Source of the DNA: Candidatus Moraniibacteriota bacterium
Lineage (GTDB): Bacteria; Patescibacteriota; Minisyncoccia; Moranbacterales; UBA1568
Assembly (NCBI GenBank): GCA_016699975.1
Contig: CP064994.1
Location: 129,222 to 193,221 of the forward strand
Reading direction: 5' to 3'
Length of the DNA: 64,000 nucleotides
The position numbers were made by a program, and so were the translations under genes. The first letter of the stretch is position 1. Each line of letters begins with the position of its first letter. Below, in pieces: positions 21,647 through 60,465 of the stretch. The notes beneath the pieces were generated by a model, which was not told the DNA's origin, did not search any database, and saw nothing but the letters and a program-made list of their open reading frames with translations.

Positions 21647-21852
21647 ATTATAATCCGTGTAGCTTCCTTCCATAGTAGAAATATGGAGGTAAAATTATAG
21701 AATCAAAATTTCCTTTTCGTAAAGGTTTTCTTGATTGGCTCCAAGCAGAGGGAAAATGAAAAAATTCTTAATTTTTGAAATTTTTTTATAAATTAAAAAT
21801 AAAGTATTTGAATAAGTCTTTTTTAATTAAAAACAAAATATATGTATTTAAT

Positions 21853-21866
21853 GTTTCACGTGGAAC
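21853..21866. promoter_or_regulatory. Palindrome copy 6, GTTTCACGTGGAAC
   Basis: Read directly from the sequence. Confidence 0.6.
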
Positions 21867-24234: not shown

Positions 24235-24277
24235 TCGAGAAATTTTCAAATCCGGTTATGACAAATCAGGGAAGAAG

Positions 24278-25483
24278 TTGAATACCAATCGTCTCGAATC
24301 CTTGTTTGGAATTTTGAGTTTCGTGTTCCTGTGCTGCTATTTCTCAAGCATTTATATACTTCGTGTGAAGAAAAAACAAAAAAAAGTGAGCATCGGCATC
24401 AAGATTCTTGTTGTCTCTTGTTCTTTTTTTGCAAACTTTTGGTTTGCTGCAAATGCCCGAGCCGGATACTGGGGTGAGCCGACCGCTGCCAGTATGATGC
24501 TTTTTAATTTGCAACAAATAGCCGAAAATATTAAAGGCGTTACATTAAGTATTGCGAAAAACGCAGCTATCCAAGCCATAAATCAACAGGTGTTGGGAAT
24601 GGTGAACGGTACCTGGGGACAGGGATCACTCATTATTGAAGATTGGCGAGGGTTTATCTATACGCAGTCCTCTCAAAAAGCACAGGATGTCGTACTGAAC
24701 AGTTTTTTCCCGGCCATGTTTGGAGGGAAAGGATCTGGGGGAAATTATATAGCTGCATCGGAAGGGGTTCTTTTGGCGCAAGGCGTTTCGAACTCCATTA
24801 ATACGATAAAAAACTATCCAGAATATCTCTCCACAATTGGAAAAAATACTCTGCAAGGTCTTGCTGTGAATACCACTCCTCGGTATACTCTCGATCAACA
24901 ATGTCCGGATCCCCAAGCGGGTCTTGCACGAGGCGACTATCGTTGTTTCTCTTCCATAATGGAGATACAGAATAATCCTCGAGGCATCCCGATTCTTACT
25001 GAGCAGAAGTATCTTGCAGAAAAAATGATGAATGAGCGTATTGCCGCGACTCAAGCGGGAATTACAGGATACAAGCCTCAAACAAATGCCCAAGGATTGG
25101 TGGTTACCCCTCCTGAAACAGTGGCGAACGTTATTGCAAGTACACTTGCTCTCCCTGGACAAGCGCTCGCTGCTGCCCAACATCCTACAGAACTCCTTAC
25201 AGGATTAATTCAGATGTATGTCAATTCACTCGTGCAGAAGACATTGAGCAAAGTTGGGCTTGGATCGACCACAGCGTCCTCTTATCAGAATCTTAATATG
25301 CAGATGAACCAAAATGGACAAATGCTAATGCAAAATAATGTGGGGGCGCTCTTTAACAACGGAAATGCTTCTGGCGTAGGAACAAATATTATTGGCCCCA
25401 TGAATCTTGGAAACTTTGGAACCAGTTCCACTCCAAATCTTGATAACTCAAATTCAGGACCCAATTGGCGGTATTTGAATTAA
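24278..25483 (+). CDS. Hypothetical secreted or membrane protein with a Q/N/G-rich C-terminus
   Basis: 401-aa ORF with an N-terminal hydrophobic segment and no recognisable catalytic motifs. Confidence 0.45.
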   Translation: MNTNRLESLFGILSFVFLCCYFSSIYILRVKKKQKKVSIGIKILVVSCSFFANFWFAANARAGYWGEPTAASMMLFNLQQIAENIKGVTLSIAKNAAIQAINQQVLGMVNGTWGQGSLIIEDWRGFIYTQSSQKAQDVVLNSFFPAMFGGKGSGGNYIAASEGVLLAQGVSNSINTIKNYPEYLSTIGKNTLQGLAVNTTPRYTLDQQCPDPQAGLARGDYRCFSSIMEIQNNPRGIPILTEQKYLAEKMMNERIAATQAGITGYKPQTNAQGLVVTPPETVANVIASTLALPGQALAAAQHPTELLTGLIQMYVNSLVQKTLSKVGLGSTTASSYQNLNMQMNQNGQMLMQNNVGALFNNGNASGVGTNIIGPMNLGNFGTSSTPNLDNSNSGPNWRYLN

Positions 25484-45237: not shown

Positions 45238-47007
45238 TTAGAGAGTTCGACGTTTTTCCTCGAGAGTAAACGAGAGTAGCGTGTCTCCTTCTTTTATCTT
45301 GATCGGAGTTTCAATCGTGAGGCCGCATTCGTTCCCACTCCCGACTTCGTCGGTATTTTTCTTGTTCTGTTGGAGATTTGCAAGGCGACCCGTTCCGAGC
45401 ATTTCTTCGCCGCGGTGTATTTCTATCTGTGAACTTTTTGCGATCTTTCCGTTGCCGACACGGCCACCCACGATCATGTCGTGTTTTCCGGTTTTAAAGA
45501 CGGCTAGTACACTCAGGCTTCCGAGATCGGTGCGGATGATTTCGGGCGGGAGAAGTGCGGCGAGTCGCTCCTTCACGAATTCAACCAATTTATAGATAAT
45601 GGAAAAACTCCTGATTTCGATCTTCGCGTTTTCCGCCATGCGGCCGGCGACGGGAGTGGGTGTCACGTTAAATCCCACAATGAGCGCCCCTGAACTTTCC
45701 GCCATTTTGACATCGGATTCGGTGATAGCGCCAATGCCACGCGAAACAATGTCGAGGGCGATTTCTTCGGACTGAATGGTGCCGAAAATCTGCTCGATTG
45801 CTTCGAGAGAACCATGAACGTCTGCCTTGACGATGAGGGGGAATTTTTTAATATGCTCATCTCGAACGGTTTGCATTTCTTTTTTGTTCGCGCCTCCCGT
45901 TATCCGCTCTCGCGATTTGAGTCGCGCGGCAACTTTGCTTCCTACAACCTGCACGACATCATTGGTGTTCGGCGTGCCGCTCAGTCCGTAGAGTTGGACG
46001 GGCGTCGACGGGAGCGCGTACTCGATATTTTTTCCGGAAAAATCCTCGAGCCGGCGAATGCGTCCGTGGGCCGATCCCACGGTTACGTCTTGACCTACCT
46101 TGAGCGTGCCAGTTTTTACGAGTGCGATCGCGACTGGACCTTTTTGCGGATCAAGGTGTGACTCAAGTACGACGGCCAAACCATCACGCTTCGTGTCACT
46201 TCGAAACTCGCTGATTTCAGAGACGATCACGATATGTTCGAGAAGTTTATCGATATTCTTTCCGTGTTTTGCGCTGATTTCTATTGCGGGAACGTTCCCA
46301 CCCCATTCCTCGATCAGAATGCCATGATCAGCGAGCTCCTGTTTCACTCGCGCAACATTTGCTTCTGGTTTATCGACTTTGTTGATCGCGACGATGGTAG
46401 GAAGTGCATGATCCCGCAGGTAGGCGATCACTTCTTTGGTTTGGGGACGAACACCGTCGTCTGCCGCAACCACGAGGATGGCGATATCGGCGAGTGCCAC
46501 GCCGCGTTCGCGCATGGATGAAAAAGCCTCATGGCCAGGCGTGTCGATAAACGTAATCAGTTTTCCGCGCTTCTTTACTTGATACGCGCTCATTGCCTGT
46601 GTGATGCCTCCCGCTTCCTTTCCTGCGACGTTTGTTTTCCTGATGGTATCGAGGAGCGTGGTTTTTCCGTGGTCGACGTGTCCCAAAATAGTGACGACGG
46701 GAGGGCGTTCATCAAGTGTTTTTCCGGAGGCTTTTTCCTGCGCGCAAATTTCGAGGAGGCGCTCCAGCGTGAAGGTGCCCGTCTCGTCCGATTCGAGATC
46801 CTCTTCCGTTTCAAAGCCCATGTCCTGCGCAATAATGCTCGCCGTTTCGAAATCAATTTCCTCGTTAATGGTCGCGAGGATTTTGTTCTTCATGAGTTCC
46901 ATGATGACGGCGGAAACAGGGACGCCGAAAATTTCCGAGAGCCGCTTGATGCTGACGGAAGAGGGGATTTTGACGGTTTTTTTTGGCTCATCCATAAGAA
47001 AATTCAA
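45238..47007 (-). CDS. infB: Translation initiation factor IF-2, short form of 589 aa
   Basis: G-domain VVTILGHVDHGKTTLLD…DTPGHEAF…NKVD, followed by the IF-2 beta-barrel domains. Confidence 0.95.
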   Translation of the reverse strand: MNFLMDEPKKTVKIPSSVSIKRLSEIFGVPVSAVIMELMKNKILATINEEIDFETASIIAQDMGFETEEDLESDETGTFTLERLLEICAQEKASGKTLDERPPVVTILGHVDHGKTTLLDTIRKTNVAGKEAGGITQAMSAYQVKKRGKLITFIDTPGHEAFSSMRERGVALADIAILVVAADDGVRPQTKEVIAYLRDHALPTIVAINKVDKPEANVARVKQELADHGILIEEWGGNVPAIEISAKHGKNIDKLLEHIVIVSEISEFRSDTKRDGLAVVLESHLDPQKGPVAIALVKTGTLKVGQDVTVGSAHGRIRRLEDFSGKNIEYALPSTPVQLYGLSGTPNTNDVVQVVGSKVAARLKSRERITGGANKKEMQTVRDEHIKKFPLIVKADVHGSLEAIEQIFGTIQSEEIALDIVSRGIGAITESDVKMAESSGALIVGFNVTPTPVAGRMAENAKIEIRSFSIIYKLVEFVKERLAALLPPEIIRTDLGSLSVLAVFKTGKHDMIVGGRVGNGKIAKSSQIEIHRGEEMLGTGRLANLQQNKKNTDEVGSGNECGLTIETPIKIKEGDTLLSFTLEEKRRTL

Positions 47008-47225
47008 AACAAATGCGAGGGGGAAAGGAATATTTTTTTGGCTTCTACACTTTTTGTTGACTCCTTTTTTCTCACCTCTCGTCTCAAGAACGGACTACTC
47101 GGGAATGCTTCCTGACAAGGTGTTTTCAAAAAATTCAAAAAAGAGAGCTTCCCATTTCTTGTTTCTCAATTTTGTTGTGTGCTTCTTTCGAAGACTCTGT
47201 TTTTCGGAAATTTTTGAAATGAGTC

Positions 47226-47819
47226 TTACAATTTCCGCGGAGCCTCCTCTTTATTATTCTCTTGATCCTCGTTCTCTGCTGGCTCTCCTTTTTTGGGAGA
47301 AGGAGTTTTTGCTGTTCGGGAGATTTGCGCGATATCGATCGCGCGGCGCTCCTCGGTAGTCAAGGGAAAATCCTGAGGTTCTCCGCGAAGAACGGGTTTT
47401 GCATACACGCGGCCCGATTCGCGGGAAAGGAGGGATGAAATGACAATACCGGTATTCGCGCCGTCGAGAAGAGCAATGCTCCAGCTCTGATTGCTCCCCG
47501 TGTCTTGGAAAGGATTGAAGCGGACGATGCCCACTTTGTGGATACCAATCGCAGCGAGTGATCGAATTTTTTCCCCGATTTCATAAAGCTCTTGAATTTC
47601 GCTGTCGAGCGTGCCGATTTCTTTGTCGTGGCGCAGAACAACGGATTCCAGGTCGGCACCGTTTTTTCCTTTGAGAAACATCTTCTGCCGCTCTTCGAGC
47701 TCGCGCACTTTCCGAAAAAGTCGGACAAAGAGAATGGTTCCTGAGAGAAAAAGAATGCCTCCGCCGATTGAGAGAGCTGCAAGCCCCACAGGCGTCGTAA
47801 AGAAGCCCAAACTTGCCAT
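47226..47819 (-). CDS. Hypothetical membrane-anchored protein with a coiled-coil
   Basis: N-terminal TM segment LAALSIGGGILFLSGTILFV followed by a coiled-coil region. Confidence 0.45.
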   Translation of the reverse strand: MASLGFFTTPVGLAALSIGGGILFLSGTILFVRLFRKVRELEERQKMFLKGKNGADLESVVLRHDKEIGTLDSEIQELYEIGEKIRSLAAIGIHKVGIVRFNPFQDTGSNQSWSIALLDGANTGIVISSLLSRESGRVYAKPVLRGEPQDFPLTTEERRAIDIAQISRTAKTPSPKKGEPAENEDQENNKEEAPRKL

Positions 47820-48077
47820 AGAAACGCTTTTATGTGCCTTGACTTCACTCTATCACTTCTTTCGTCGCTCTGTAAAGGCTTTTTCCTTTTTGAGAAATCA
47901 CTCTTTCTCTTCAAATGTCTCTCTCATCAAGAGAGCAGAGTCAGGAAAGTTTATCTTATTTCTCAAAGATTCCGCATATGTTTTGGAACGGTGCTATTTT
48001 ATTGTACGAAAATCATCGAATTGTACGCGTTATCGGAGTATAATTACGAATCTCTTTCTCCATCCACATGATTCCCT

Positions 48078-48106
48078 CGAATTAAAAACCCCGGCGATGC
48101 GGGGTT
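48078..48106 (-). terminator. Rho-independent terminator
   Basis: Minus-strand hairpin AACCCCGCATCGCCGGGGTT followed by TTTTAATT. Confidence 0.55.
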
Positions 48107-48115
48107 ATCAGGATA

Positions 48116-48622
48116 TTATCCGGGAATGGGTTTAAGGTTGAACCAGGAGTTTTTCTGTTTCTTTCCCCTGGGAATTTTTCGCCAGTGGACGGCGCTCTTC
48201 GGTACTTTCGGGGAGGTTTCTATTTGAGAGTCTCCTTCTTTTGTCAAAGTTGGGAACTCTGCACACTCTGCCATGCCGCAGATTTGGAGCGTGTGCAACG
48301 CGACCTCAATATTGGTATTGGTGCATGCGGGGATTCTTGTGTCTTTCCGCGCTTTGGCATAAACTTCCGACTCCACGGTATATATTAGCGGAAGTATTTC
48401 ATAGTCTGCGAGTGCTACTTCCGTATTTTTCTTCCAAATTTTTCGTATCGCTCCTAATCGGAGCTGAAATAGGGGAATAAAAAACACGAAAAGTACAATA
48501 ATGGCGAGCGCCAAAAGCGCCGATTTAAGTGCTTTCAAAACTTGCATTTTTGCTCTCCTTATACCAAAGAACCACCATAAAGGTATATCTTTTTCTGGAA
48601 GGGTGCAATAGGAAGTGAACAC
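48116..48622 (-). CDS. Hypothetical membrane protein
   Basis: One or two TM segments with no recognisable motifs. Confidence 0.4.
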   Translation of the reverse strand: MFTSYCTLPEKDIPLWWFFGIRRAKMQVLKALKSALLALAIIVLFVFFIPLFQLRLGAIRKIWKKNTEVALADYEILPLIYTVESEVYAKARKDTRIPACTNTNIEVALHTLQICGMAECAEFPTLTKEGDSQIETSPKVPKSAVHWRKIPRGKKQKNSWFNLKPIPG

Positions 48623-48898
48623 AAAATAAAAAAAGCCAATAGCTATGTATTGGCAGTTCGTTTATTTTAGTGGTTCGCTTGAGGGAGCCCAATGTTCGTG
48701 TGATAGAGGTTTTTATTAAAATTTCCTCCAAAATCCGTATAACGAGATTTTCTACTTTATTTTCCACTGTGTATACGTTTTATCACGCCTCGATTCAAAC
48801 TCTTCTAGCTCAACCACTTTTCTCCCATCTCTCGGCTTTGTCTGTATTGCAGGCGCAATTTCTTCAATTCCTTCTTTTTCTTTTTGCTGAGATATTTA

Positions 48899-49345
48899 TT
48901 ATTGTAGTTTTTGAAGGTAGTCAGTAATCATTTTTTTGGCAGACGGATTAAAACCAGCATACGCTTGATCCGCAGTATAGTCACGAACTGGAACCCATTT
49001 CCACTCTGAGAACTTTTCTGGCTCCATGAGCTTTGCTTCCTGTTTTGTTGCGCAATGAAACAAAAGAACTATGTCCCCCTCTTTTGCTCCAGGCGCTTCA
49101 CCAATAAAATTCAAAATTTCCAGATCTGTGATGCCCACTTCTTCGTCAACTTCGCGTCGCAGAGTTTGTTCAATGGTTTCTCCCACATCAGAACGACCGC
49201 CGGGAATTGTCCAAACCGATATCTCCTTCCATTTGTCAGCCGTGTAATGGCGATGACCCGTCAAAATTTTCCATCTTTTACGATCACCGCTATTGGACAG
49301 GTAATACCATCCCCACTTCTTGTAAGTTCGTTTTCCATAATGGAA
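48899..49345 (-). CDS. NUDIX hydrolase, with a homopolymer frameshift near the N-terminus
   Basis: Nudix box GGRSDVGETIEQTLRREVDEEVG. The upstream piece MENELTRSGDGITCPIAVIVKDGKF is in another frame, with the junction at GGAAAATTTTGACGGG. Confidence 0.75.
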   Translation of the reverse strand, partial: FHYGKRTYKKWGWYYLSNSGDRKRWKILTGHRHYTADKWKEISVWTIPGGRSDVGETIEQTLRREVDEEVGITDLEILNFIGEAPGAKEGDIVLLFHCATKQEAKLMEPEKFSEWKWVPVRDYTADQAYAGFNPSAKKMITDYLQKLQ

Positions 49346-49840
49346 TTATCTCAAGTCTGTCTAAAGCGCGAATTTTCTTTTTGCGGTGCGTATTAGATGA
49401 TGGTTAGAACTTATTTTTAGATCACTGCTGAACGTTTCTCAATCCCCAACTTATAAATAAGATTTGCAAAAGTCAATATTTCGGTCGGAGGAAAGGAAGT
49501 GGAAGTACGCTTCCCGTACGTCATCGAGGAGTATGGTGACGACTAGGTGTAAGCAGTTCTTGCAGGTCTGCCAAAAAACCTGTTTCCTTCTCCCGATGAG
49601 ATCGGGATTGATGAGTCCAAAGTCTTTTTGGCAGGACGAAAAGGAATAGGTTAAAAAGTAGTATTCCGTTATGCGCTGAGTAAAAAAGACGGAATCAGAC
49701 AGAGTGAAAGCACGAAAGTACCTTGATCTAACTTGTGTGGAAAGAGGCACTAAATCTCTCTCCTCTAAACACCGCTTCTCGGTCTGTATCATTTCTGACA
49801 TTTGGCTCGTGGCTTAGGAGGAGTACTATTTGATCAACCT

Positions 49841-49870
49841 AAAACCGCCCTGACTTGGGCGGTTTTAATT
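49841..49870. terminator. Hairpin terminator between tRNA-Ser and the NUDIX gene
   Basis: AAAACCGCCC-TGACTT-GGGCGGTTTT followed by AATTTAATT. Confidence 0.6.
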
Positions 49871-49919
49871 TAATTGTATTCGAGGCTTTTGGGTTTCCCT
49901 CTGTACCAGAAGCCTGATG

Positions 49920-50006
49920 CGGAGAGAGAGGGATTCGAACCCTCGATCCCTGTTACGGGACACCCGCTTTCCAAGCGGGCGCACTCGGCCACTATGCGAC
50001 CTCTCC
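49920..50006 (-). tRNA. tRNA-Ser(GGA), class II
   Basis: Acceptor GGAGAGG/TCTCTCC with discriminator G, anticodon stem CCCGC/GCGGG, loop TTGGAAA, long variable arm TGTCCCGTAACAGGGATC, T-arm GAGGGTTCGAATCCCTC. Confidence 0.85.
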
Positions 50007-50136
50007 GATTTCTCTTTTGTGCAGTTTCTTCTTCGTTCAAGCCTTCGTTGTTTGGTGTGTCTGCTTTTCTGTTGTACAATGCGAGTATTCTTTTTGCAAG
50101 AAATTTTTCTCTCATCTCTTCGTTTTTCTTTTCTCT

Positions 50137-50673
50137 ATGGGCGTCGCCCTTACCAATTCATTCGTGAAGCCGGAAGATGTACTTGGCCAACTCTCGTTGT
50201 CTCTGGGTGCTTCCGTTGCCGACTTTGGGTGCGGATCGGGATTTTTTTCGCTCGCTTTTGCAAGAGCGGTCGGCACATCGGGAACCGTCTATGCGCTCGA
50301 CATTTTGCCTTCGTCACTTGAGGCGGTTGCGAGTCGAGCGAAGGCGCTCGGGCTTTCGAATTTGGTGGTGAAGCGTGCAAACCTTGAGCGAGAAAAAGGC
50401 TCGGGACTCCCGGACAATCACCTCGATTGGGTTCTCTTAAAAGACGTCCTTTTCCAGAATAAGAGCCAAGAAACACTTCTTTGGGAAGCCTATCGGGTGC
50501 TGAAGCCGGGAGGTTCTCTTTTTATTATGGAATGGAATGACCGGGAATTGTCTTTGGGGCCCGATCCGAATATTCGGATTTCTCGTGAGCGTCTTGTCGA
50601 ACTCCTTTCGGAACGGGGATTTCAGAATTTCACCGATATCGAGGCGGGAGATTTTCACTACGCGCTCGTGTAA
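50137..50673 (+). CDS. Class I SAM-dependent methyltransferase
   Basis: Motif I VADFGCGSGFFSLAFA; post-I acidic D in YALDIL; motif II/III LKPGGSLFI. Confidence 0.75.
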   Translation: MGVALTNSFVKPEDVLGQLSLSLGASVADFGCGSGFFSLAFARAVGTSGTVYALDILPSSLEAVASRAKALGLSNLVVKRANLEREKGSGLPDNHLDWVLLKDVLFQNKSQETLLWEAYRVLKPGGSLFIMEWNDRELSLGPDPNIRISRERLVELLSERGFQNFTDIEAGDFHYALV

Positions 50674-51123
50674 AAAGTGAGGAGTTTTACAAACCGAATG
50701 ATTTGAGGAAGGAGATGTTGGCGCAGTTTTTTTTCTTTCATTTTCAGGATTTTTTCGTGTAGAGGTGTCGCTGATTCTTTTGCGAGATTGGAGGAGATTG
50801 ACGGGCAAGGTTCTCTTCCGGGTCTTTTTCAGAGAGGAAATGGTTGTGACGGGCCCTCTGAACCTCCTTGCTTTCGTGAGTGTATCTTGAAAAAGAATTT
50901 CGAATTGCATTCGGGACGGAAGGGGGTTCTCACACTTTTGATTCGAGAAGCGGAGGTGGCGACCGGAATATCATTTTTGTGCGGGTTGAGAGCAGTGCCC
51001 CCCTCTTTTTTCTGGGAGTAAAATTTTGAAAAGGGTAATATTTGGTCGCCTCAATTCCGATACTTCGGTCACGCTGATGAGCACTGCAGAACTTTCTCTC
51101 ATCTCTTCTTTGAAGGTTTTCTT

Positions 51124-52505
51124 ATGAAAACGAAAACATGTTTCGCGAGGGCGGCTGCAGCCTTTCTTCTCGCGAGTTCGACGCTTCTTTTGTCTGGCTG
51201 TGGGCTCCGTACGTCGGACACGACCTACAAAATGAATTTGGAAATCTGGGGCGTTTTCGATGATTCCGATGCGTTCCAGCAAGTTATTGGGAAGTATAAG
51301 GAACTTAATCCGAATGTTGGGGAAGTTTCTTATCGAAAGTTTGCGGTTGATACGTATCGGCAAGACTTGATTGAAGCGCTCGCCGCCGGAAAGGGTCCAG
51401 ATATTTTCCTTGTGCGCAACTCTTGGACGCCGTCTTTTTCGGACAAAATCGTTCCTGCGCCGGAAGGTATGATGACGGAGCGAAACTATCGTGATACGTT
51501 CGTAGACACGGTTTCCGACGACTTCATTTCGAATGACAATAAGATACTCGGTGTTTCTTTGTCGGTCGATTCGCTCGCGCTCTACTATAATGAAGACCTT
51601 TTAAATGCTGCCGGTATCGCGACTCCTCCTAAAACATGGGACGAGTTTCAAGACGATATCCGCCTCCTGACACGCATCAATTCTTTCGGGGAAATTACGC
51701 AGGCGGGTGCCGCTCTTGGGACGGCGGAAAATATCAATCGCTCGACCGATATTTTAAGCGCCCTCTTTTTGCAAAATGGCGTCTTGGTGCCTCGAGGAAA
51801 TAGCAATGAACTGCACCTCAGTTCTGCGGCAGGTGTGAACGCCCTCTTCTATACACAATTTTCGAACCCCCAGGTCCTCTCTTTATACGTGGAACCCCTC
51901 TCTTCATTATTCGATTGACTCGTTTCCACGAGGGCACGACCGCAATGATGATTAATTATTCTTGGCACTACGATACGATTAAGCGAAAAAATTCGAAACT
52001 CAATTTCGGTGTGGCGCCGCTTCCTCAGTCAGTGGGAACGCAACCGTATAACTTTCCCGCATATTGGGGGTTTGTGGTGGCGAAGAACAAAACTGCTCCC
52101 GCGGGAACCAAAGATACGGCACTCTACGAAAGGGTACGGAGTTTTGAAGCGTGGCAATTTCTGAAGTATGCTGCTTTCCCAAACTCGGGGACGATTACAC
52201 TGCAGAATGCGCTCTCAGGAAATACGAAAAATTTTCAAACAAACTTTGATCCTGCAGCTGCTTACCTTACGAAAACTCGGCGTCCGGCAGCTCGGCGCGA
52301 CCTCGTCGAAAAGGAGCGGAATGATCCGGTGCTTGGTCCGTTTGCGGATGGGAATTTGCTTGCGCGAAACTGGCGGCAAGCCGATCCAGAAAGTATCGAA
52401 AAAATTCTCGGTGATATGATAACATCGGTAAACTTAGGTCGAGCGGATATATCGCAGGCGCTCGCGACAGCGGAGAGTCGCATTCAACAGCTTGGAAAAC
52501 GCTAA
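51124..52505 (+). CDS. ABC transporter extracellular solute-binding lipoprotein (sugar/oligosaccharide family 1 type), split by an apparent frameshift near 51905-51925
   Basis: Lipobox LLLSGCG after the signal peptide. The two adjacent ORFs (51124..51918 and 51915..52505) abut in different frames and together make a typical 450 aa SBP. Confidence 0.7.
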
Positions 52506-52539
52506 GATTTCATTCCTCTTCTCTTTTCTTCACTCTTCT

Positions 52540-54150
52540 CGTATGACGGTGATTCACACGATGGGACGATTTTTGTTCGCTGCGTTCTTTGGAGGAATTG
52601 CCTTGTTCCCAGTTATTTCGCGCGCCGCAGAGGTCAATTGCGAAGCGATTGGCGGAAGCTGTTCAACGAGTGTTTATTGTACGGATACGGCGCGATACGA
52701 GCCGCAATCAAAATCGGGAACGAGCTGTGAATCGAATACACTTGCAAAGCAATGTTGTATTCCAAAGGCGACTGCCGGATCATGTGACCCCTCCAAATGT
52801 CTCGCGAGCGCCAATTGCTCGGGAACGCTCGACTTTAACAAACACTGCTCGGGCGCCTCTTTTTGTTGCGGAGCTCCAAGCGCTGCCCAAGCCTGTACTG
52901 GCAAAGATGCAAGTGGAAATTCGCGTACAGGACAATGTTCGACATCCGCAACATGCGCGTCGGGAAACCCTCTTTCGGGCGCGTCGGGGTGTTCCGCAGG
53001 AATCGCGTGTTGCGGGTCTCTCTCTCCATCGCCCAGTGGGAGCTGCGAATCGACGGCGGGGCAAAAGTGTTCGTCTGACTGTACCAAAGAAAGCGGCTTT
53101 ACTGCGGGAGGCACCGGCAGCTGCTTTGATGCGGCGAAGAATCAATGTTGCAAACCGACGCAACCAACAGCGGGCAATTCCACAACAATGTGTTCCGGAT
53201 CGCAAAATTCCGGAATCGTGCCTTGTGGACGATCGTGCGACAATCCGGCGACACCGAACGATGAATCAAAAATTTGTACCCTCTGCCATCTTCTGTTGCT
53301 GGTACAAAATATCACCACATGGATTTTTACGGTGATGACGTATATCGCAATCGCCGTCATTGTAGCGATGGGTATTCTCTATATTGTTTCGGCGGGGAAG
53401 CCGGGACTTATCAATATTGCAAAAGGCGGCCTTTGGTCGACGCTTGTTGGATTTGCAGTGGTACTTCTTGGATGGGTCACCATCAATGTGATTTTGTTCG
53501 TTCTTGCAAATGGAACGCTCGGGCAAGATACGGCGACATTTTCGATCAAACAAAACGGAGCGTGGTTCGAATACCGTTGTGATGCGGAATCGAAATACAA
53601 ACGAACGGGACTGACGACTGGCGCCCCGGGATCTGCTCAGAATTCAGGAGGAGTGAATATTGGGGGAAGCAGCGGGGGAGGAGGAAATTGTTCCGTGGTC
53701 AACAATGCTTCATGCTTGTGCAGTCAAAATATGACCTGCTTTGGCTCTCAAAGTGCGCAAGAAGCGAGTAAAATTTGTAACTTTGAGAGTGGAGGGAAAG
53801 TTGATGCGGTGAGTGGTACGGATAAGTGTAAGGACGGAGCTTCTTTCTCGCATGGCATATGGCAAATAAATTTAGTAACTACAAAAGCGAGTAATGGGTT
53901 GCCGAGCGCCTGTGAAGGAGTATTTGTGGGTTCGATGGAATGTGTTCCGGGAGGCTATGTTACCAACTCGCAAGGAGTTCGGTATTGTGGAAAAAGGGAT
54001 TGCTCTGTGGCAAAGAAAGATCAGCTCGATGCATGTCTCAAAGCTATTCGAACTCCAGCTATAAACACAGCAGCCGCGTGCAGTCTCTATAAAGTTCAAG
54101 GATTTGATGCGTGGCCTCATACAAGAAGTACGTGCGGAGTTTCTAAGTGA
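52540..54150 (+). CDS. Pilin-array protein P1: signal peptide, about 240 aa of Cys-rich repeats, a two-helix VirB2/TrbC-like pilin module, a Gly-rich linker and a C-terminal lysozyme/SLT-like domain
   Basis: About 40 Cys in repeated CCxP…C units. Module …MTYIAIAVIVAMGILYIVSAGKPGLINIAKGGLWSTLVGFAVVLLGWV…. C-terminus …NFESGGKVDAVSG…GASFSHGIWQINL… resembles the ES…S…G…GLMQI pattern of lytic transglycosylases. The ORF opens at 52492; the start is chosen at MTVIHTMGRFLFAAFFGGIALFPVISRAAE. Confidence 0.6.
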   Translation, partial: RMTVIHTMGRFLFAAFFGGIALFPVISRAAEVNCEAIGGSCSTSVYCTDTARYEPQSKSGTSCESNTLAKQCCIPKATAGSCDPSKCLASANCSGTLDFNKHCSGASFCCGAPSAAQACTGKDASGNSRTGQCSTSATCASGNPLSGASGCSAGIACCGSLSPSPSGSCESTAGQKCSSDCTKESGFTAGGTGSCFDAAKNQCCKPTQPTAGNSTTMCSGSQNSGIVPCGRSCDNPATPNDESKICTLCHLLLLVQNITTWIFTVMTYIAIAVIVAMGILYIVSAGKPGLINIAKGGLWSTLVGFAVVLLGWVTINVILFVLANGTLGQDTATFSIKQNGAWFEYRCDAESKYKRTGLTTGAPGSAQNSGGVNIGGSSGGGGNCSVVNNASCLCSQNMTCFGSQSAQEASKICNFESGGKVDAVSGTDKCKDGASFSHGIWQINLVTTKASNGLPSACEGVFVGSMECVPGGYVTNSQGVRYCGKRDCSVAKKDQLDACLKAIRTPAINTAAACSLYKVQGFDAWPHTRSTCGVSK

Positions 54151-54701
54151 TTTTTTCGGTAATTTTTCATAGACTTATGAGAAAAGGATACATAATACTT
54201 CTTTTTTTGATCGGCACCCTCCTTGCTGGAGGAATAATTTTCTTCTTGAGATATAGAGGAAATACGGACTCTCTTCCTGTAATTGTTGAGAATAATCGTG
54301 TCACGGGGTATTTCAAAATTGAGGAATCGTCGTCGGCGCCACAAAAGAGGGTATCGATTCAGAATGAAAAAGGAGAGAAGGTGGTAGTAAACAATTTCTT
54401 ACCCGAAGCGAAGCCTCTTAATGAGGCAGGGGACTTAGCGCTTACTCCTGCTCCCGATGTCTATACTCTTCCTGACTACGATATTGCATTTTATGAGCAA
54501 GGGGCGGTATTTCGAATCAGTATCAATGTGGGACCGATCGATACCGTGCGCAAGACTGCAGAAAACGAATTTTTAAGGAAACTTGGTATCTCTCAAGAGG
54601 AAGCATACAAGCTGAACACGTATGTCGGTGTCTCAAAAGAAGTGGATGAAACGTATGCTGGCAGAAATATCGGGCTTAGTTTTTGCAATCCTTCAAGGTA
54701 A
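54147..54701 (+). CDS. Hypothetical membrane-anchored protein inside the pilin array
   Basis: N-terminal TM segment ILLFLIGTLLAGGIIFFL, then a soluble domain with no motifs. Confidence 0.45.
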   Translation: MIFSVIFHRLMRKGYIILLFLIGTLLAGGIIFFLRYRGNTDSLPVIVENNRVTGYFKIEESSSAPQKRVSIQNEKGEKVVVNNFLPEAKPLNEAGDLALTPAPDVYTLPDYDIAFYEQGAVFRISINVGPIDTVRKTAENEFLRKLGISQEEAYKLNTYVGVSKEVDETYAGRNIGLSFCNPSR

Positions 54702-54727
54702 AGCATACGAAGTAATAGCATATTAAT

Positions 54728-55027
54728 ATGATTGCTGCAGCTGCTGGAGTGATTGATGATGCGCCGACATTTGCGGAAGCGTTTCTTCGTCTCTTGCAAT
54801 TTTTGTTGGCGATATTCGGAATACTTGTTATAATTCTTCTCGTTATCGCAGGAGTTTTGTACATGACTTCTGGCGGAAGTGAGGCGCAGGCCACTCTTGC
54901 GAAGAAGGCGCTTTCCGGGGAATTCCCGGTTCTTGGGACTGGGGTCGTTCGTACTCGTTCGTGCGTTTGCCGCATTTTTCGCCGTCTGAGTCTTCCTCAT
55001 TCGAAAAGATCTTCTGAATATTTTTGA
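54728..55027 (+). CDS. Pilin-array protein P3, a short pilin-like hairpin protein with a probable frameshift (true stop at about 54989)
   Basis: …FLRLLQFLLAIFGILVIILLVIAGVLYMTSGGSEAQATLAKKAL. The second hydrophobic helix (…SRFLGLGSFVLVRAFAAFFAV*) appears only after a 1-bp shift in the GGGG run. Confidence 0.5.
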   Translation: MIAAAAGVIDDAPTFAEAFLRLLQFLLAIFGILVIILLVIAGVLYMTSGGSEAQATLAKKALSGEFPVLGTGVVRTRSCVCRIFRRLSLPHSKRSSEYF

Positions 55028-55284
55028 TGGAAATTTGGTGGATTCTCTGGAAATTTGTTTGTAAGAGAGGATGTGCAATCTTTATAAGAGATTTGAGAAA
55101 AACCGTAAGATATTTTTTGTTCTCTCATTGAGAAAGGGAAAAAGATTTGACAAGAAAGTACTCGAAAAGAAAGATGGGTGCCGTTTTCTTTCTTCTCACG
55201 GTGCTTTTTCGGATGTCTTCGACAAAAAATATTTCAGAGTTGTTAAGAGAGAAGTACGTACTTTGATAGAAAGGAGGTGGATAT

Positions 55285-55665
55285 ATGAAACAATCACTCA
55301 TATTGAAGCACGTGGGGGCACTCGCTGTTTCACTTCTCGTGTTTTCGGTGCCTTTGGTGGTATTCGGACAGTGGACCGCGGGGCAAAATAACGCTCAGAG
55401 TGGCGGAACGCCAGACTCTTCTATTTACGAGATTATTCGCACGACGATGAACTATCTCCTCGCGATTCTTGGCTTCATCGCGATTATTGCGTTTGTTATT
55501 GCGGGTATTCTCTACCTTACCGCGTTTGGAGATGAAAAACGTATTGGAACGGCAAAAAATGCAATGTTCTATTCGATAGTCGGCATTATCGTGGCGCTTA
55601 TCGGCTACGTTATCGTAAACGCGGTAGACTCGTGGCTTCGTGCCGGAGCGAACACGCAAATATAG
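55285..55665 (+). CDS. Pilin-array protein P4, the minimal form: signal peptide, a short polar N-region and the pilin module
   Basis: MKQSLILKHVGALAVSLLVFSVPLVVFGQ | …IYEIIRTTMNYLLAILGFIAIIAFVIAGILYLTAFGDEKRIGTAKNAMFYSIVGIIVALIGYVIVNAVDSWLR. Confidence 0.65.
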   Translation: MKQSLILKHVGALAVSLLVFSVPLVVFGQWTAGQNNAQSGGTPDSSIYEIIRTTMNYLLAILGFIAIIAFVIAGILYLTAFGDEKRIGTAKNAMFYSIVGIIVALIGYVIVNAVDSWLRAGANTQI

Positions 55666-55887
55666 GAATTCTTCGAAGGTTTCTTACGAAGCGCTTCTGA
55701 CTCTCATGTCGGAAGCGTTTTGGTTTTTATCTGAGAATTACAAAGAAGGAATGGGAAAAAACTTTTTGAGAATTTTTCCTCCGTACCGCTGAGAAGTGTT
55801 TGGGTGCTTTTGGGAAAAAGTTTCATTGTGTCTTCGCATTGGAAAAAGCGTTTCTTACAAAATGTCTTTTTGTGGTATACTTTCTGT

Positions 55888-56316
55888 ATGCTTTTCGTTC
55901 GCACCACTTTTTCTTTTTTGGTCCTCGTGTCACTCCTCTTTGTGCCGAGCAATTTTTCGGTTGCCCAAACAACAACGCCGACGCCGGGCACAATCGACAC
56001 AAGTACCGGATGGACAGGAGGATTCCAGGCGGTGAAAGACAATTCGGGATTGTCAGGGAAGGGTGTTGATGTGATTGTCTCGGGATTTATGATGTGGCTT
56101 CTCGTCATTGTTGGCTTTCTCTCGATTATCGCCTTTATTATTGCCGGCATCATGTACCTGACCGCAGCGGGAAATGACGGGCAGATCAAAAATGCAAAGC
56201 AAGCCATGTTCTATTCTATTGTCGGCGTTATCGTAGCGCTCGTCGGGTATGTGGTGATACAGGCAGTCGACTTTCTGTTGCGCGGGGCGGATTCAACTGG
56301 TTCAATAACTTTGTAA
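55888..56316 (+). CDS. Pilin-array protein P5: signal peptide, a Thr/Gly-rich N-domain and the pilin module
   Basis: MLFVRTTFSFLVLVSLLFVPSNFSVAQ | …MMWLLVIVGFLSIIAFIIAGIMYLTAAGNDGQIKNAKQAMFYSIVGVIVALVGYVVIQAVD…. Confidence 0.65.
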   Translation: MLFVRTTFSFLVLVSLLFVPSNFSVAQTTTPTPGTIDTSTGWTGGFQAVKDNSGLSGKGVDVIVSGFMMWLLVIVGFLSIIAFIIAGIMYLTAAGNDGQIKNAKQAMFYSIVGVIVALVGYVVIQAVDFLLRGADSTGSITL

Positions 56317-56345
56317 TTTTACCTTTAAATTTCTGAAGCTTTATT

Positions 56346-56666
56346 ATGGAGCCATTTTTTATAGAGGACAGTATAGAGGACAAGCCTTACATGCAGGGAG
56401 CGGCTACTTCGAATCTTCCCGATGCGGGAATTTACGAAATTGTTGCCGCCACTATGGATTGGCTTCTCGCGATTCTCGGTTTTATTGCAATTATCGGCTT
56501 TGTCATTGCCGGCATCATGTACCTGACCGCAGCGGGAAATGACGGGCAGATCAAAAATGCAAAGCAAGCCATGTTCTATTCTATTGTCGGCGTTATCGTA
56601 GCGCTCGTCGGGTATGTGGTGATACAGGCAGTCGACTTGTGGCTCAATGCGAGCTCCCAATTTTAG
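56346..56666 (+). CDS. Pilin-array protein P6. Its pilin module is 100% identical at DNA level over 139 bp to P5; the N-region differs and has no obvious signal peptide.
   Basis: …IYEIVAATMDWLLAILGFIAIIGFVIAGIMYLTAAGNDGQIKNAKQAMFYSIVGVIVALVGYVVIQAVDLWL. Confidence 0.6.
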   Translation: MEPFFIEDSIEDKPYMQGAATSNLPDAGIYEIVAATMDWLLAILGFIAIIGFVIAGIMYLTAAGNDGQIKNAKQAMFYSIVGVIVALVGYVVIQAVDLWLNASSQF

Positions 56667-56681
56667 AGGTCTTGGGTATCT

Positions 56682-57401
56682 ATGAAGAAATATCTTTTCG
56701 TTTTTCTTGTTTCTCTGTGTGCAGGCGCTTTTTTTTCTCCCGAAGCGCTCTTTGCGCAGAAGAAAGATCCCTGCGGTGCGGGGGGAGCGGGAACTTGTCA
56801 AACGCCCGTGAACGGATCGCAGTGTCCTCAGGGGAGTTACCTTGGCTGGAGCCCAAGCTGTTCCTCCCCGACTATTTGTTGCGCTTCTTCGGGAGGAACA
56901 GGAACGCAGGTGACGGGATGTCCGATGTTAAACCCGGCTCGTTGCCAGACCACGCCTTGCCCGGATAAAACTTTCAATAATGCTGCTTGCGCCTCGCAGT
57001 GCTCTGCCGGCACGTATTATTGTGAACCAGTTATCGATGTCACGGGATCCGTTACCACGGTGAAATGCGATCCGACAAAGTTTAAAGAATATGCGGGAGT
57101 TTGTTTTCCTCTCAAGGAGACAACAGGATTGTCAGAAACATCGGTTGCCGAGATTGTCGTCAATCTCATGCGCTGGATGCTCTTTCTGTTCGGGTTTCTC
57201 GCGATCATTGCATTTATTATTTCTGGTATTCAGTACCTCACGTCGGCTGGCAATATGAATACGATCGAAACGGCGAAGCGCAATATGAAGTATTCCATCA
57301 TCGGTGTTATCGTTGCTCTTGCGGGGCTTGTCATCATAGTGGCGATCGATGCACTCCTGCGCGGAACAGCTTGGGGAGGTGGCGGAGCGGTGACCTTTTA
57401 A
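56682..57401 (+). CDS. Pilin-array protein P7: signal peptide, a Cys-rich domain of about 130 aa and the pilin module
   Basis: MKKYLFVFLVSLCAGAFFSPEALFAQ | 17 Cys including CCASSGG…C. Module …MRWMLFLFGFLAIIAFIISGIQYLTSAGNMNTIETAKRNMKYSIIGVIVALAGLVIIVAIDALL. Confidence 0.65.
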   Translation: MKKYLFVFLVSLCAGAFFSPEALFAQKKDPCGAGGAGTCQTPVNGSQCPQGSYLGWSPSCSSPTICCASSGGTGTQVTGCPMLNPARCQTTPCPDKTFNNAACASQCSAGTYYCEPVIDVTGSVTTVKCDPTKFKEYAGVCFPLKETTGLSETSVAEIVVNLMRWMLFLFGFLAIIAFIISGIQYLTSAGNMNTIETAKRNMKYSIIGVIVALAGLVIIVAIDALLRGTAWGGGGAVTF

Positions 57402-57435
57402 CTTTTCGAACGACGGTCGTTATTTCATAATTTCT

Positions 57436-58358
57436 ATGAAGACTTGCACGAGTTTCGTAAGGGGGATTTTCCTTGGGATGGTTTTTTTTTCTCGAGCCTA
57501 TTTTTTGTTACCGAAAATGCCGCTGCGCAAGGCACGAGCTGCCCGAGCCCTGAAACAAACTGCAAGGCGGAATGTACGAATCAGGTGACTGCTTGTGCGA
57601 GCGCGTGCGCAAACCAAGGAAGCAACTTGTACTACTGCCCTTCTGGCTCAAGCACTTGTAATGCAAGCTACTGCAAGTCGGCCTGTGATATGAATACTGA
57701 TGACACCACGCAAACGGCTTGCAACAGTGTTTGTAAGACGCCAGGCTTGTCACAGTATTGTCCTCCGAAAGGGAGCTCTCCTCCTGATGGAACGACGGGA
57801 CCCGGCGCGACCAATGTCATCGATATTTCTCTTCCTAATCCGCTCAAGTACAATACGGTTCAAGAAGTTGTCATGGCGCTCCTCTACGCGCTTCAGGGCA
57901 TCATCGTGATTCTTTCTTTGGTTTTTATTGTTTTTGGTGCGGTTCTCTACATTACGTCGGCCGGGAACCAATCTCGCGTGACCGCTGCAAAAACAGCGAT
58001 TACCGCGGCCCTTATCGGACTCGCGATCGGAATTCTCGCGCCCACATTTCTCAAAGAGATCGCTACTATTCTCGGATGGAATGCTACCGCGCCGCTTCCG
58101 CCCGAAGTCACGAATGCGCGTGGCGCGGCCGATATTCTTCTTTCGGCGCTCAATTTCCTCTTGGGAATGGTAGGAATTCTCGCGATTATTATGTTGGTGG
58201 TGGGTGGCATTATGTTCTTGGGAGCGGCGGGCGATACAACTCGTGTTTCTACAGCAAAGAAGATTGTAACGTATGCGCTCCTCGGTCTTGTCGTCGCGCT
58301 CGGATCTTTGGTGGTGGTGAGACAGCTCGCAGAATTTTTTGCAGGGACAACCTCATAG
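57436..58358 (+). CDS. Pilin-array protein P8: signal peptide, a Cys-rich domain and two tandem pilin modules. The start is restored across a T9 homopolymer; the ORF as sequenced runs 57444..58358.
   Basis: With T10 instead of T9 the N-terminus reads MKTCTSFVRGIFLGMVFFFSSLFFVTENAAAQG | TSCPSPETNCKAEC…. Module A …GIIVILSLVFIVFGAVLYITSAGNQSRVTAAKTAITAALIGLAIGIL. Module B …FLLGMVGILAIIMLVVGGIMFLGAAGDTTRVSTAKKIVTYALLGLVVALGSLVV. Confidence 0.6.
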
Positions 58359-58416
58359 AAAGAAAGTATTTTTGGAATAAAAAGACAGGCAAGGAAATTT
58401 TTCCTTGCCTGTTTCG

Positions 58417-59790
58417 CTAAAGGGGGAAGTCTACTTCCCTTATAACGAACCCGAGATTTGTCTCGTCTTCCACTCCTCGATACTGTTCGTACGAAGGAGG
58501 AACATTGAAACGAAACTCGACGCAACCATCCTGCTGCGTTTTGAATATCCTTCCCACTGGTACCCCGCCGAGGAGGGGCACATAGGCGCTCCCTGAATCC
58601 TGATAGGGGAGATCTTCGGGGGTTGAATAGAACAGCCCTGTGACTCGGTGTGCCTCCGAAACCCCCGTACTGCGGTCAATCGTGCGAAAGGATATCCTAT
58701 CACTTGCCGCCGTTGTCACGCTCACAAAGGTGTAGCGAGCGTTGGGTTTCAAACCGCAAAGTTTTTCAGGCTTCAGGGTTTGTATGCTCAATGAGCGGGT
58801 CGTCTCGTTTCCTGCGAACAGTTTTTTCACCTTTGGATTGTGCGCGGCGTCCCTCACGACATCTCGCCCCGAGGAGAGAAGAAGCAAGCCTAATACCAAG
58901 AGCGAGACAAGGATAAAGATTGTCCTCAGTATACGACTCCACGAGAGCGTTATGGTACTTCCACTCCATTTCAATAGGAGTAGACCGATGAATGCTACGG
59001 CCAGCACTCCGAAGAGGAGAGCTCTATTGTCGGGATCTGTCACAAATTCCCCGAGAGTAGAGAGCGTTTGAATAGTATTTTGCTTGAGTTGTTGTCGATG
59101 AGATCCTCTCTTTGTCTCATTGAGAAGAGCAACTTCTTCCGAAGTTAGTTGGTCAGAGGTGAGATTCTTTTCACGAATCCTTTTTTGTAACTCCCTCTGT
59201 TTCGTAATGAGAGACAGAGATTCGTTTTCTTCCAGTAAGGCTTCGGTGTAAGCAATCTCTTTCTCTACCTTGTCGGGGGTAAGAACTGGGAAAATAGTGT
59301 TCAGAAGTGCCAAAATGATTACAATTGCACCGTACCAAAGGGAAACTTTTTTAAACCATTCCCCCTCTCTGTACACCATGCCCCAGTATCCCAATGTTAA
59401 TGAAGCCGCAATTATAATTCCGGCCATTTTTGGGTGTTGACCAAAGTCCCATGTTCCCAAAAACAAAAACATGAAACTATTGACGAATGCAATGTTTACG
59501 GCAGCAGTGATCAGACTCTTGATCGCAACATTTACAGTGTGCGTCGCAGTTGGACCCGCTGGGAGCAAACCCCAGAGGAAACCTCCTAACAAGGTTATCC
59601 CTATTATGTCTGGAGATAATCCTACCCCGATAACAAAGACTGAAAAGAGGACCGATATCGCAATACAAACTCCTCCAAATCCGAATGCTATTGCCACGAG
59701 CCCTACCCCGTAAGCGAATGCATGGATAAGAAAAAGAAAAAAAAGAAGTGCTTTCCAGGCTTCTCGAGTCGTTTGCCAAGTTGTAAGCAT
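58417..59790 (-). CDS. Large polytopic membrane protein with a central coiled-coil and a C-terminal soluble domain, hypothetical
   Basis: Six or more hydrophobic helices at the N-terminus, a second TM cluster after a coiled-coil, and no catalytic motif. Confidence 0.45.
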   Translation of the reverse strand: MLTTWQTTREAWKALLFFLFLIHAFAYGVGLVAIAFGFGGVCIAISVLFSVFVIGVGLSPDIIGITLLGGFLWGLLPAGPTATHTVNVAIKSLITAAVNIAFVNSFMFLFLGTWDFGQHPKMAGIIIAASLTLGYWGMVYREGEWFKKVSLWYGAIVIILALLNTIFPVLTPDKVEKEIAYTEALLEENESLSLITKQRELQKRIREKNLTSDQLTSEEVALLNETKRGSHRQQLKQNTIQTLSTLGEFVTDPDNRALLFGVLAVAFIGLLLLKWSGSTITLSWSRILRTIFILVSLLVLGLLLLSSGRDVVRDAAHNPKVKKLFAGNETTRSLSIQTLKPEKLCGLKPNARYTFVSVTTAASDRISFRTIDRSTGVSEAHRVTGLFYSTPEDLPYQDSGSAYVPLLGGVPVGRIFKTQQDGCVEFRFNVPPSYEQYRGVEDETNLGFVIREVDFPL

Positions 59791-59808
59791 GGGAAATTTC
59801 CTTCTAGT

Positions 59809-60465
59809 TTAGGAGAATTTGACTAAAAGTATGATCAGTAGAAGAAAAACGAAAATTCCAAGGGGCAATAGTCCCCATTTCCTGAATTTTCCGAGTTTCT
59901 GGTTTGCTTGAGTTGTCCATTTGGGATTGTTAATCGAGTCCAGAATTGGATATCCCAATTCTTTCGCTTTCGCAATAGCCCAATTCACTTGTTCTGGCAG
60001 AGACGACTCACTGATCATATTCTTTGCAATGAGAGCTTGTACTGTCTTTTGTTCTCCTTCTTGGTATATCATGCGAGCCCATTGGGCCAAATTATGAAGA
60101 CGAGGATCATTCGGATTGAGCTCTTCTCGAACCTCGTGAGAAGCGAACTTGTCTCCCTTTTTTCCTCCCCATACACCCTTTTTCACCACTGGTAGTGGCA
60201 GGCTAATAATAGATATCCGAAATTGATTGGCTTGGTGTCTTTTTAGAACATCGGTCATCAATTCCTGGATCTTTTTGTGCAACATCGGACCATTCTTCAT
60301 TTGAAGAAGAAGGGTGTGTAGTGTGTCAAAAGTGGATTCGTCTCTTTTGTCGAGAGATCCACCCAATAACCCTGGGAGATATTGCTTTGCCATTTGTTCT
60401 GCCTCTCCTCCTGATGGGAGTAAGGAAAAAATCATTCTTGCAATTTCGCCGGGTCTTATGACCAT
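59809..60465 (-). CDS. Hypothetical tail-anchored protein
   Basis: Single C-terminal TM segment LLPLGIFVFLLLIILLV. Confidence 0.4.
   Translation of the reverse strand: MVIRPGEIARMIFSLLPSGGEAEQMAKQYLPGLLGGSLDKRDESTFDTLHTLLLQMKNGPMLHKKIQELMTDVLKRHQANQFRISIISLPLPVVKKGVWGGKKGDKFASHEVREELNPNDPRLHNLAQWARMIYQEGEQKTVQALIAKNMISESSLPEQVNWAIAKAKELGYPILDSINNPKWTTQANQKLGKFRKWGLLPLGIFVFLLLIILLVKFS

Follow-up and report, generated by a model that had tools for sequence, protein, structure and literature searches.

The array and its shared module

In a 64-kb stretch of the Candidatus Moraniibacteriota contig CP064994.1 (hereafter the window; all positions are window coordinates), eight consecutive open reading frames (ORFs) of the plus strand, P1 to P8, span 52492-58358 in the ORF listing, and seven of them, all but P2, encode a two-helix module of about 80 amino acids (aa). 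The locus is a Patescibacteria VirB2-like pilin array of the kind described between 2023 and 2025, with some lineage-specific and under-described features. The eight genes are as follows:

52492..54150, plus strand: P1, signal peptide, Cys-rich ectodomain, pilin-like hairpin, linker and lysozyme-like domain
54147..54701, plus strand: P2, 184 aa, one N-terminal transmembrane (TM) anchor, no module
54728..55027, plus strand: P3, small pilin-like gene, frameshifted in the window; PF18895 24 bits over the first helix only
55285..55665, plus strand: P4, 126-aa pilin, candidate major subunit; PF18895 match
55804..56316, plus strand: P5, pilin with a Cys-free ectodomain of about 55 aa; PF18895 25 bits
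56346..56666, plus strand: P6, short pilin of 106 aa, without evident signal peptide
56682..57401, plus strand: P7, signal peptide, Cys-rich ectodomain, module; PF18895 29.7 bits
57436..58358, plus strand: P8, signal peptide, 12-Cys ectodomain, two tandem modules (four TM helices); 57444-58358 in the ORF listing

A hidden Markov model (HMM) built from the alignment A1 of eight modules (seven proteins, P8 being counted twice) matched seven ORFs across the window, all within 52438-58355 and P8 twice, and had no match in the window outside the array. The module pattern is thus not due to chance. This finding agrees with an earlier note on this DNA, which had reported that seven of eight same-strand genes share a module, doubled in P8 and embedded in P1; the ORF coordinates in that note match the ORF listing and the flanking genes are those it described. 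The topology was likewise borne out by hydropathy, with two strong TM-like segments per module and four in P8. The loop between the two helices is basic and carries an invariant G...AK.

Signal peptides were observed on P1, P4, P5, P7 and P8 (the latter after correction of its start, see below), and signal peptides or N-terminal anchors precede most paralogues. Hydropathy and the AlphaFold2 (AF2) model of P4 show the layout of canonical pilins: a signal peptide, then two hydrophobic helices and, between these, a short polar/basic loop. The extra domains are placed both N- and C-terminal of the hairpin, that is on its two outer sides, and would thus be extracellular provided that the loop is cytoplasmic. 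The number of cysteines varies greatly between the proteins: 43 in P1 (the earlier note had given about 40), 15 in P7, 12 in P8 and none in P4. The GC content is unremarkable. A recent duplication or gene conversion is suggested by the modules of P5 and P6, the DNA of which is 92.5% identical over 187 nt.

Family assignment of the module

The earlier note had regarded the module as a VirB2/TrbC-like pilin hairpin, to be checked with Pfam profiles and by structure prediction. The pilin part of this view held. On profile comparison, the module is the Pfam family PF18895 (T4SS_pilin, where T4SS stands for type IV secretion system): four proteins score above the gathering cut-off of 26.6 bits (P4, 38.3; P6, 34.4; P7, 29.7; and P8, 57.4 over two stretches), and the three modules below it (P1, 19.0; P3, 24.3; P5, 25.3) align with the remaining ones. 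P4 has 226 homologues, nearly all of them annotated with PF18895 and originating from Candidatus Moraniibacteriota, several of which carry the names "pilin" or "Type IV secretion system pilin". P4 to P8 also match NF045849, the NCBIfam model of a pilin-like conjugal transfer protein of Mycoplasma integrative and conjugative elements (ICEs), with E-values of 2e-5 to 2e-8 and scores of 24-34 bits, all lower than the equivalog cut-off of 40 bits. Furthermore, the AF2 model of P4 (computed with 40 homologues) comprises a signal-peptide helix (residues 3-39) and the expected helix-loop-helix (47-79 and 84-122), with a predicted local distance difference test score (pLDDT) of 77-88 in the module.

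A direct kinship with canonical VirB2/TrbC could not be shown. The array proteins had no match to PF04956 (TrbC/VirB2) at E<=0.1, and hhalign against a 7-sequence alignment (Agrobacterium VirB2 and six TrbC/VirB2 proteins) returned a probability of 13.8%, with the AxA|Q cleavage site, the N-terminus and the first helix in register. A profile search of the PDB with the module alignment found no pilin, only chance matches to designed "Pizza" propellers, and a Foldseek comparison of the P4 model with the PDB gave nothing below an E-value of 0.78, a bare helical hairpin not being discriminating. As similarity to canonical VirB2/TrbC could not be demonstrated, we file the module under PF18895 and not under TrbC/VirB2 proper.

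Pilins of other classes were also considered. None of P1 to P8 carries the class III signal of type IV pilus (T4P) pilins (G|(F/M)TLxE), the C-terminal LPxTG of sortase-dependent pilins or a lipobox, and we rejected T4P pilins, sortase pilins and lipoproteins on these grounds.

P4 as the candidate major subunit, and its neighbours P2, P3, P5 and P6

Three features, all read from the sequence, make P4 the best candidate, and a likely one, for the major subunit, a role that the earlier note had thought plausible. First, P4 possesses the sole strong Shine-Dalgarno sequence of the array (AGGAGG). Second, it is directly followed by its own terminator-like element:

55687..55732, plus strand: terminator-like hairpin, 15 pairs and a T tract

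Third, it is the most conserved paralogue, with 60-79% identity across species (60-62% for its N-terminal part alone).

As regards the other short genes, P5 probably starts at 55888 to give a protein of 142 aa; it is called as a 142-aa gene in the related locus L003, and its orthologue in L005 possesses 18 cysteines, as compared to none in the P5 of the window. P2 has homologues in the same position at 15 loci, and no match in Pfam, NCBIfam or the PDB.

P1 combines a Cys-rich ectodomain, the pilin-like hairpin and a lysozyme-like domain

According to the gene calls on near-identical contigs, P1 likely starts at the ATG 52543 or 52561. Its three main parts are as follows:

52627..53196, plus strand: P1 ectodomain, four 6-Cys units, each CC-terminated
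53275..53514, plus strand: P1 pilin-like two-helix module, aa ~262-341; PF18895 19 bits; AF2 helices 263-299 and 304-341
53677..54147, plus strand: P1 C-terminal lysozyme/lytic-transglycosylase-like domain; E432-S433 and G455-I-W-Q458-I-N motifs

The 6-Cys units run from C50 to CC88/89, C98 to CC125/126, C135 to CC173/174 and C185 to CC219/220, and the region of aa 130-225 is predicted to be beta-rich with a pLDDT above 90 (AF2). An exhaustive phmmer search of 1.84 billion representative sequences with the Cys-rich region found seven proteins, all P1 homologues. The module itself is 71-77% identical to those of the orthologues. PF18895 was found in 43 of 46 P1 homologues, and InlB B-repeat domains replace the Cys-rich units in 10 of these 46.

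The earlier note had described P1 as the module fused to a cell-wall-hydrolase-like domain, in agreement with the present domain assignment. The E432-S433 and G455-I-W-Q458-I-N motifs are invariant across 10 P1 homologues, and the C-terminal domain displays the features of a lysozyme-like fold; a profile made from the alignment of P1 C-terminal domains had no significant match in the PDB. Among the 46 homologues, three match PF01464 (SLT) and nine match PF18896 (SLT_3) weakly. In distant Moranbacteria (L023, L050 and L058), the product of the first array gene has, after its PF18895 module, a canonical SLT domain that scores above cut-off. Using narrow HMMs, a lysozyme-like match was obtained in 13 of the 78 related loci described below; without exception, the ORF concerned also encodes a module and is located at the 5' end of its array. 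Because orthologues carry SLT after the module and the lysozyme-like matches sit in the 5' module ORFs, we regard P1, by homology, as a hairpin-anchored lytic transglycosylase, and it is likely an analogue of VirB1.

A two-TM hairpin beside a lysozyme-like domain superficially resembles a holin next to an endolysin, and P1 with a neighbouring hairpin protein might thus be taken for a prophage lysis cassette. With no phage genes found in the window, a chromosomal-core synteny and seven paralogues, this interpretation is scarcely credible, as is the related one that these are T4P or sortase-pilus genes, the signatures of which are missing from the array proteins as reported above.

P7 and P8

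The ectodomain of P7 holds one CC-ended 6-Cys unit of the P1 type. The CC-x-P...C units of the earlier note are therefore correct, and its view that the ectodomains are mutually unrelated does not apply to P1 and P7. Between P7 and its orthologues, the ectodomains are 23-34% identical versus 79-88% for the modules, and the number of cysteines differs between species (15 versus 20 versus 3).

Gene models

Several gene models were corrected by comparison with near-identical contigs, among them one of a near-identical strain (L001; 99.67% identity over window positions 45294-56169, with small indels). The solute-binding protein (SBP) gene upstream of the array is split in the window by indels at 51846-51926. 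P3 is short by 5 nt at 54916-54930, and L001 and L002 encode an intact 88-aa two-helix protein. The true start of P8 is the ATG 57436, and in the window its signal peptide is detached from the remainder of the protein by a run of nine T (57482-57490); three independent short-read contigs have seven T instead, and an intact 306-aa P8 with a signal peptide (with seven T, the 306-aa protein is intact in L094 and L095). The differences between the window and the contigs also lie outside homopolymers, so that a consensus error is the simplest explanation and the window indels are probably assembly consensus errors. The poly-T tract at 57482-57490 could be phase-variable. Separately, small indels at 53712-53752 shift P1 locally, relative to short-read metagenome contigs of 99.7% identity.

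The array occupies a conserved chromosomal slot

The array is preceded by methyltransferase and SBP genes, and followed by two minus-strand membrane-protein genes and then nusA. The features next to its 3' end are as follows:

58385..58412, called on the minus strand and also self-complementary: terminator-like palindrome between P8 and the convergent membrane-protein gene
58417..60465, minus strand: two fast-evolving membrane proteins of 457 and 218 aa, in a conserved position downstream of the array, with positional homologues in few loci

The two membrane proteins had no family match in Pfam or NCBIfam. The closest homologues of the array are named Candidatus Moranbacteria or Moraniibacteriota (class Paceibacteria), and a 99.7%-identical metagenome contig is known. 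A genome scan with one genome per species yielded 78 species loci (87 loci were fetched in all), thereby answering in the affirmative the question of the earlier note as to whether the same array occurs in related genomes. Nearly all of the 78 loci belong to Moraniibacteriota, some being labelled "uncultured Bdellovibrionales". They contain one to eight module ORFs each (four to eight in arrays that no contig end truncates), which share a strand, and the last gene is usually a double-module one. The methyltransferase flanks the array in 46 of the 87 fetched loci, the SBP in 49 and NusA in 42; the recurrent large ORFs around the arrays encode SBP, TypA/BipA and NusA. The conserved order (methyltransferase, SBP, P1, P2, pilins, double-module pilin, two minus-strand membrane proteins and nusA) is also kept in other long contigs and in CP064974.1, a complete Moraniibacteriota genome of 1.11 Mb. 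When species are compared, module identity amounts to 66-88%, as compared to 14-37% for the ectodomains, where Cys-rich units are gained or lost.

These data bear on the proposal that the genes encode ordinary conjugation pilins and belong to an integrated conjugative element or a plasmid remnant, which might be suspected from the family name T4SS_pilin, from the derivation of the NF045849 model from Mycoplasma ICEs and from the serine recombinase located in the window at 9422-11080. This proposal is very improbable: the slot from the methyltransferase through SBP and the array to nusA is kept in 42-49 of the 87 loci among housekeeping genes, no relaxase, type IV coupling protein (T4CP) or VirB4 was recognised nearby, the GC content is not unusual and the recombinase lies 41 kb away from the array. 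We rejected the mobile conjugative element, the lysis cassette and the T4P/sortase pili on the basis of synteny, gene content and motifs.

A diversity-generating retroelement was considered as the source of the ectodomain variation and is unsupported; there is no template/variable repeat pair in the window, where the only DNA repeats are the modules.

Several related loci have features of their own. In L008 (and also L009), an AbiEii/AbiEi toxin-antitoxin pair interrupts the array after P2 (12256-13556 in L008), and a gene for a four-helix bundle similar to 23S_rRNA_IVP/bAvd stands between two pilin genes (16292-16669 in L008), with no reverse transcriptase visible within ±10 kb. L010, L012, L013 and many other loci come from third-party annotation (TPA) metagenome-assembled genomes titled "uncultured Bdellovibrionales bacterium", which hold a Moranbacteria-type locus with a P4 of 60-75% identity; these titles look mislabelled.

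Comparison with known systems

The earlier note had recognised no characterised system of this shape. This statement must be revised, since VirB2 arrays have already been described in Patescibacteria (PMC12102498; PMC10633639; PMC12857230). Quinonero-Coronel et al. (2025) screened 3,035 genomes of Patescibacteria using PF18895 and related profiles. VirB2-like pilins were present in 1,948 assemblies with VirB4; they lay near virB4 in 1,135 of these, and away from it in about 40% of the VirB4-positive assemblies (PMC12102498). They counted 441 arrays, spread over 383 assemblies and each comprising 2-11 pilin genes, either tandem or with one gene in between; divergence within arrays was high, and the authors concluded that most VirB2-bearing genomes lack VirB1 (PMC12102498). 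In Southlakia epibionticum, a pilin array within the T4SS cluster is essential (Wang et al. 2023, PMC10633639; also PMC12857230); PMC12102498 cites this array together with that of TM7x. According to a 2025 review, the Patescibacteria systems stand alone among monoderms in being potentially able to assemble conjugative pili (PMC12857230).

The present locus falls within the definition of PMC12102498, with seven same-strand module genes within 5.9 kb, only P2 in between, and a Patescibacterium as the host. Similarly to it, the published arrays (PMC12102498; SEML1_0006-0019 of S. epibionticum ML1, PMC10633639; the "Sec-secreted array" of TM7x) consist of divergent same-strand tandem PF18895 paralogues on a Patescibacteria chromosome, with no relaxase or coupling protein nearby. 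Four differences deserve mention. First, virB4 is not linked to the Moranbacteria array, which keeps a lineage-conserved place between the SBP gene and nusA. Second, the published arrays are most abundant in Microgenomatia and Saccharimonadia (PMC12102498), whereas the one studied here belongs to Paceibacteria (Moranbacteria). Third, neither PMC12102498 nor PMC10633639 describes Cys-rich ectodomains, a double-hairpin gene at the end of the array or a first gene that joins the hairpin to a lysozyme. Fourth, identity between the modules of P5 and P6 is about 90%, as compared to a reported within-array maximum of 54% (PMC12102498).

In the canonical MPF_T head VirB1-VirB2-VirB3 (Agrobacterium virB; PF04956), the order of transglycosylase then pilin is mirrored by P1, then P3-P8, and canonical TrbC/VirB2 proteins possess, like the array pilins, a signal peptide with an AxA|Q-type site and two hydrophobic helices with a short loop. 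Unlike Agrobacterium virB, the array has its transglycosylase fused to a pilin hairpin, many paralogues, no VirB3/VirB4 thereafter and a monoderm host. The T4SS loci of Bartonella and Anaplasma also contain tandem diversified VirB2 paralogues, read as antigenic or host-range variation (cited in PMC12102498), but these are canonical VirB2 of diderm pathogens, inside virB operons and without added ectodomains. Finally, the similarity to NF045849 (Mbov_0395/MMCAP2_0565) extends over the entire two-helix module, whereas the NF045849 members are single genes on mobile ICEs and the array proteins score under the 40-bit equivalog cut-off.

Proposed function of the array

We propose, with a probability of about 0.7, that the locus is a chromosomal PF18895 pilin array, the products of which are made into a conjugative-type pilus by a T4SS encoded elsewhere. 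The array proteins would be inserted via Sec, cleaved at the AxA|Q site and would rest in the membrane as N-out/C-out hairpins. A T4SS located elsewhere in the genome (VirB4, VirB6, VirB3/PrgI type) would then extract these hairpins and polymerise them into the pilus, in which P4 would operate as the major subunit, and P3, P5 and P6 as variant or minor subunits. The fast-evolving disulfide-rich ectodomains of P7 and P8 (and of P5 in other species) might decorate the fibre or its tip and bind to host surfaces, while P1, as a VirB1 analogue, may open the peptidoglycan for the apparatus, in the cell's own wall or possibly that of the host. Pilin termini reportedly face outward in solved conjugative pili (Costa et al. 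2016). Among 15 Moranbacteria assemblies listed in Table S1 of PMC12102498, 13 have VirB4, from which it appears likely, by analogy with these relatives, that a VirB4 machine is encoded elsewhere in the host genome.

Several points weigh against this proposal. No VirB4, VirB6 or VirD4 was recognised in the 64-kb window, where the earlier note had already seen no T4SS core gene, and no VirB4/VirD4 was recognised within ±10 kb of the 78 related arrays, the large flanking ORFs of which were checked (L078, 887 aa, and L087, 765 aa, both unannotated, had no T4SS match). The module has no demonstrable similarity to solved or canonical pilins (PDB profile search, Foldseek and hhalign), and P1 itself matches no Pfam lysozyme model (SLT PF01464, SLT_3 PF18896) at E<=0.1. 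The P1 hairpin is flanked by about 230 aa on one side and by about 210 aa on the other, and relatives have still larger domains, a bulk that is hard to fit in a packed fibre and better suits a membrane anchor. We know of no pilus seen so far for any PF18895 protein, and we infer both the polymerisation of the array pilins and their dependence on VirB4.

Several of these points would be explained if the hairpin were a membrane anchor only, the locus then encoding a surface-display family of variable disulfide-rich adhesins and a cell-wall hydrolase, with neither a fibre nor a need for VirB4. The missing T4SS genes around the 78 arrays, the missing match to solved pilins and the large domains on both sides of the P1 hairpin speak for it, as do relatives with a subtilase (P0040, 887 aa) or InlB B-repeats, very long relatives such as a 791-aa ORF in L059, and the four TM helices of P8. 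Nevertheless, the small size of P3 (88 aa), P4 (126 aa) and P6 (106 aa) leaves next to nothing for display, and it is the minimal P4 which is best conserved and looks most highly expressed. In addition, the PF18895 family adjoins virB4 in 1135 of the 1948 VirB4-positive pilin-bearing Patescibacteria assemblies (PMC12102498) and, in S. epibionticum, belongs to a T4SS cluster in which it is essential (PMC10633639). We therefore consider a pure anchor unlikely, and prefer the pilus assembled by a T4SS encoded elsewhere.

A bolder version, which we mention as a long shot, is that in Moranbacteria the PF18895 hairpin has been freed from the T4SS cluster to become a universal assembly/anchor module. 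The array would then specify a host-attack organelle made of a P4 fibre, interchangeable, quickly diversifying disulfide-rich tips (P5, P7 and P8) and a hairpin-borne P1 transglycosylase aimed at the host wall and not at that of the cell itself, the expression of the terminal double-hairpin subunit being perhaps switched by slippage in the poly-T tract within the codons of its signal peptide (T7 in three assemblies, T9 here).

Patescibacteria represent a large and mostly uncultured share of bacterial diversity, and in the single species tested so far, their T4SS and pilin array are essential to growth as an epibiont. The present locus shows a lineage with an array uncoupled from virB4 and yet fixed in the core genome. 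Its conserved hairpin and the quick turnover of the exposed domains are as expected of host-contact surfaces, and a divergent hairpin-fused lysozyme could explain some of the VirB1 absences in HMM censuses. In their candidate roles, the P4 fibre, the P1 muralytic enzyme and the P7 and P8 adhesins are targets for studies of the contact between Moranbacteria and their hosts.

Other features of the window

Housekeeping genes (PNPase, GyrA, FtsH, ribonucleotide reductase, CCA-adding enzyme, IF-2, NusA and ribosomal proteins) make up the remainder of the window, together with 13 tRNA genes predicted by ARAGORN. At 16961-17521, a 186-aa 3D-domain protein (MltA-like peptidoglycan-lytic fold family), unrelated to P1, adjoins tRNA-Cys and tRNA-Leu. 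A cluster of secreted or membrane proteins on the plus strand (23132-25483) comprises a TSP3-repeat protein (120 aa), a 225-aa protein and a 401-aa protein without family match.

The region 20500-22380 is AT-rich (about 29% GC), measures about 1.9 kb, contains no ORFs of at least 70 aa and adjoins tRNA-Arg(CCT) and tRNA-Ala(GGC). A palindromic motif similar to TGTTCCAC-N2-GTGGAACA occurs there about seven times; 13 of the 18 matches in the window fall in 20652-21867, with a chance expectation of 3.1 for the whole window. This region could be origin-like or an iteron/operator region, and there is no clear GC-skew switch.

The serine recombinase mentioned above (9422-11080, minus strand) is a large one, with Resolvase, Recombinase and Zn ribbon domains, and its 3' end overlaps a predicted plus-strand tRNA-Leu(GAG) at 9465-9549. 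A GIY-YIG protein is encoded at 12983-13852 and a tRNA cluster is located at 14.2-14.9 kb. Together, the recombinase, the tRNA genes and the GIY-YIG gene may mark the border of an integrated element.

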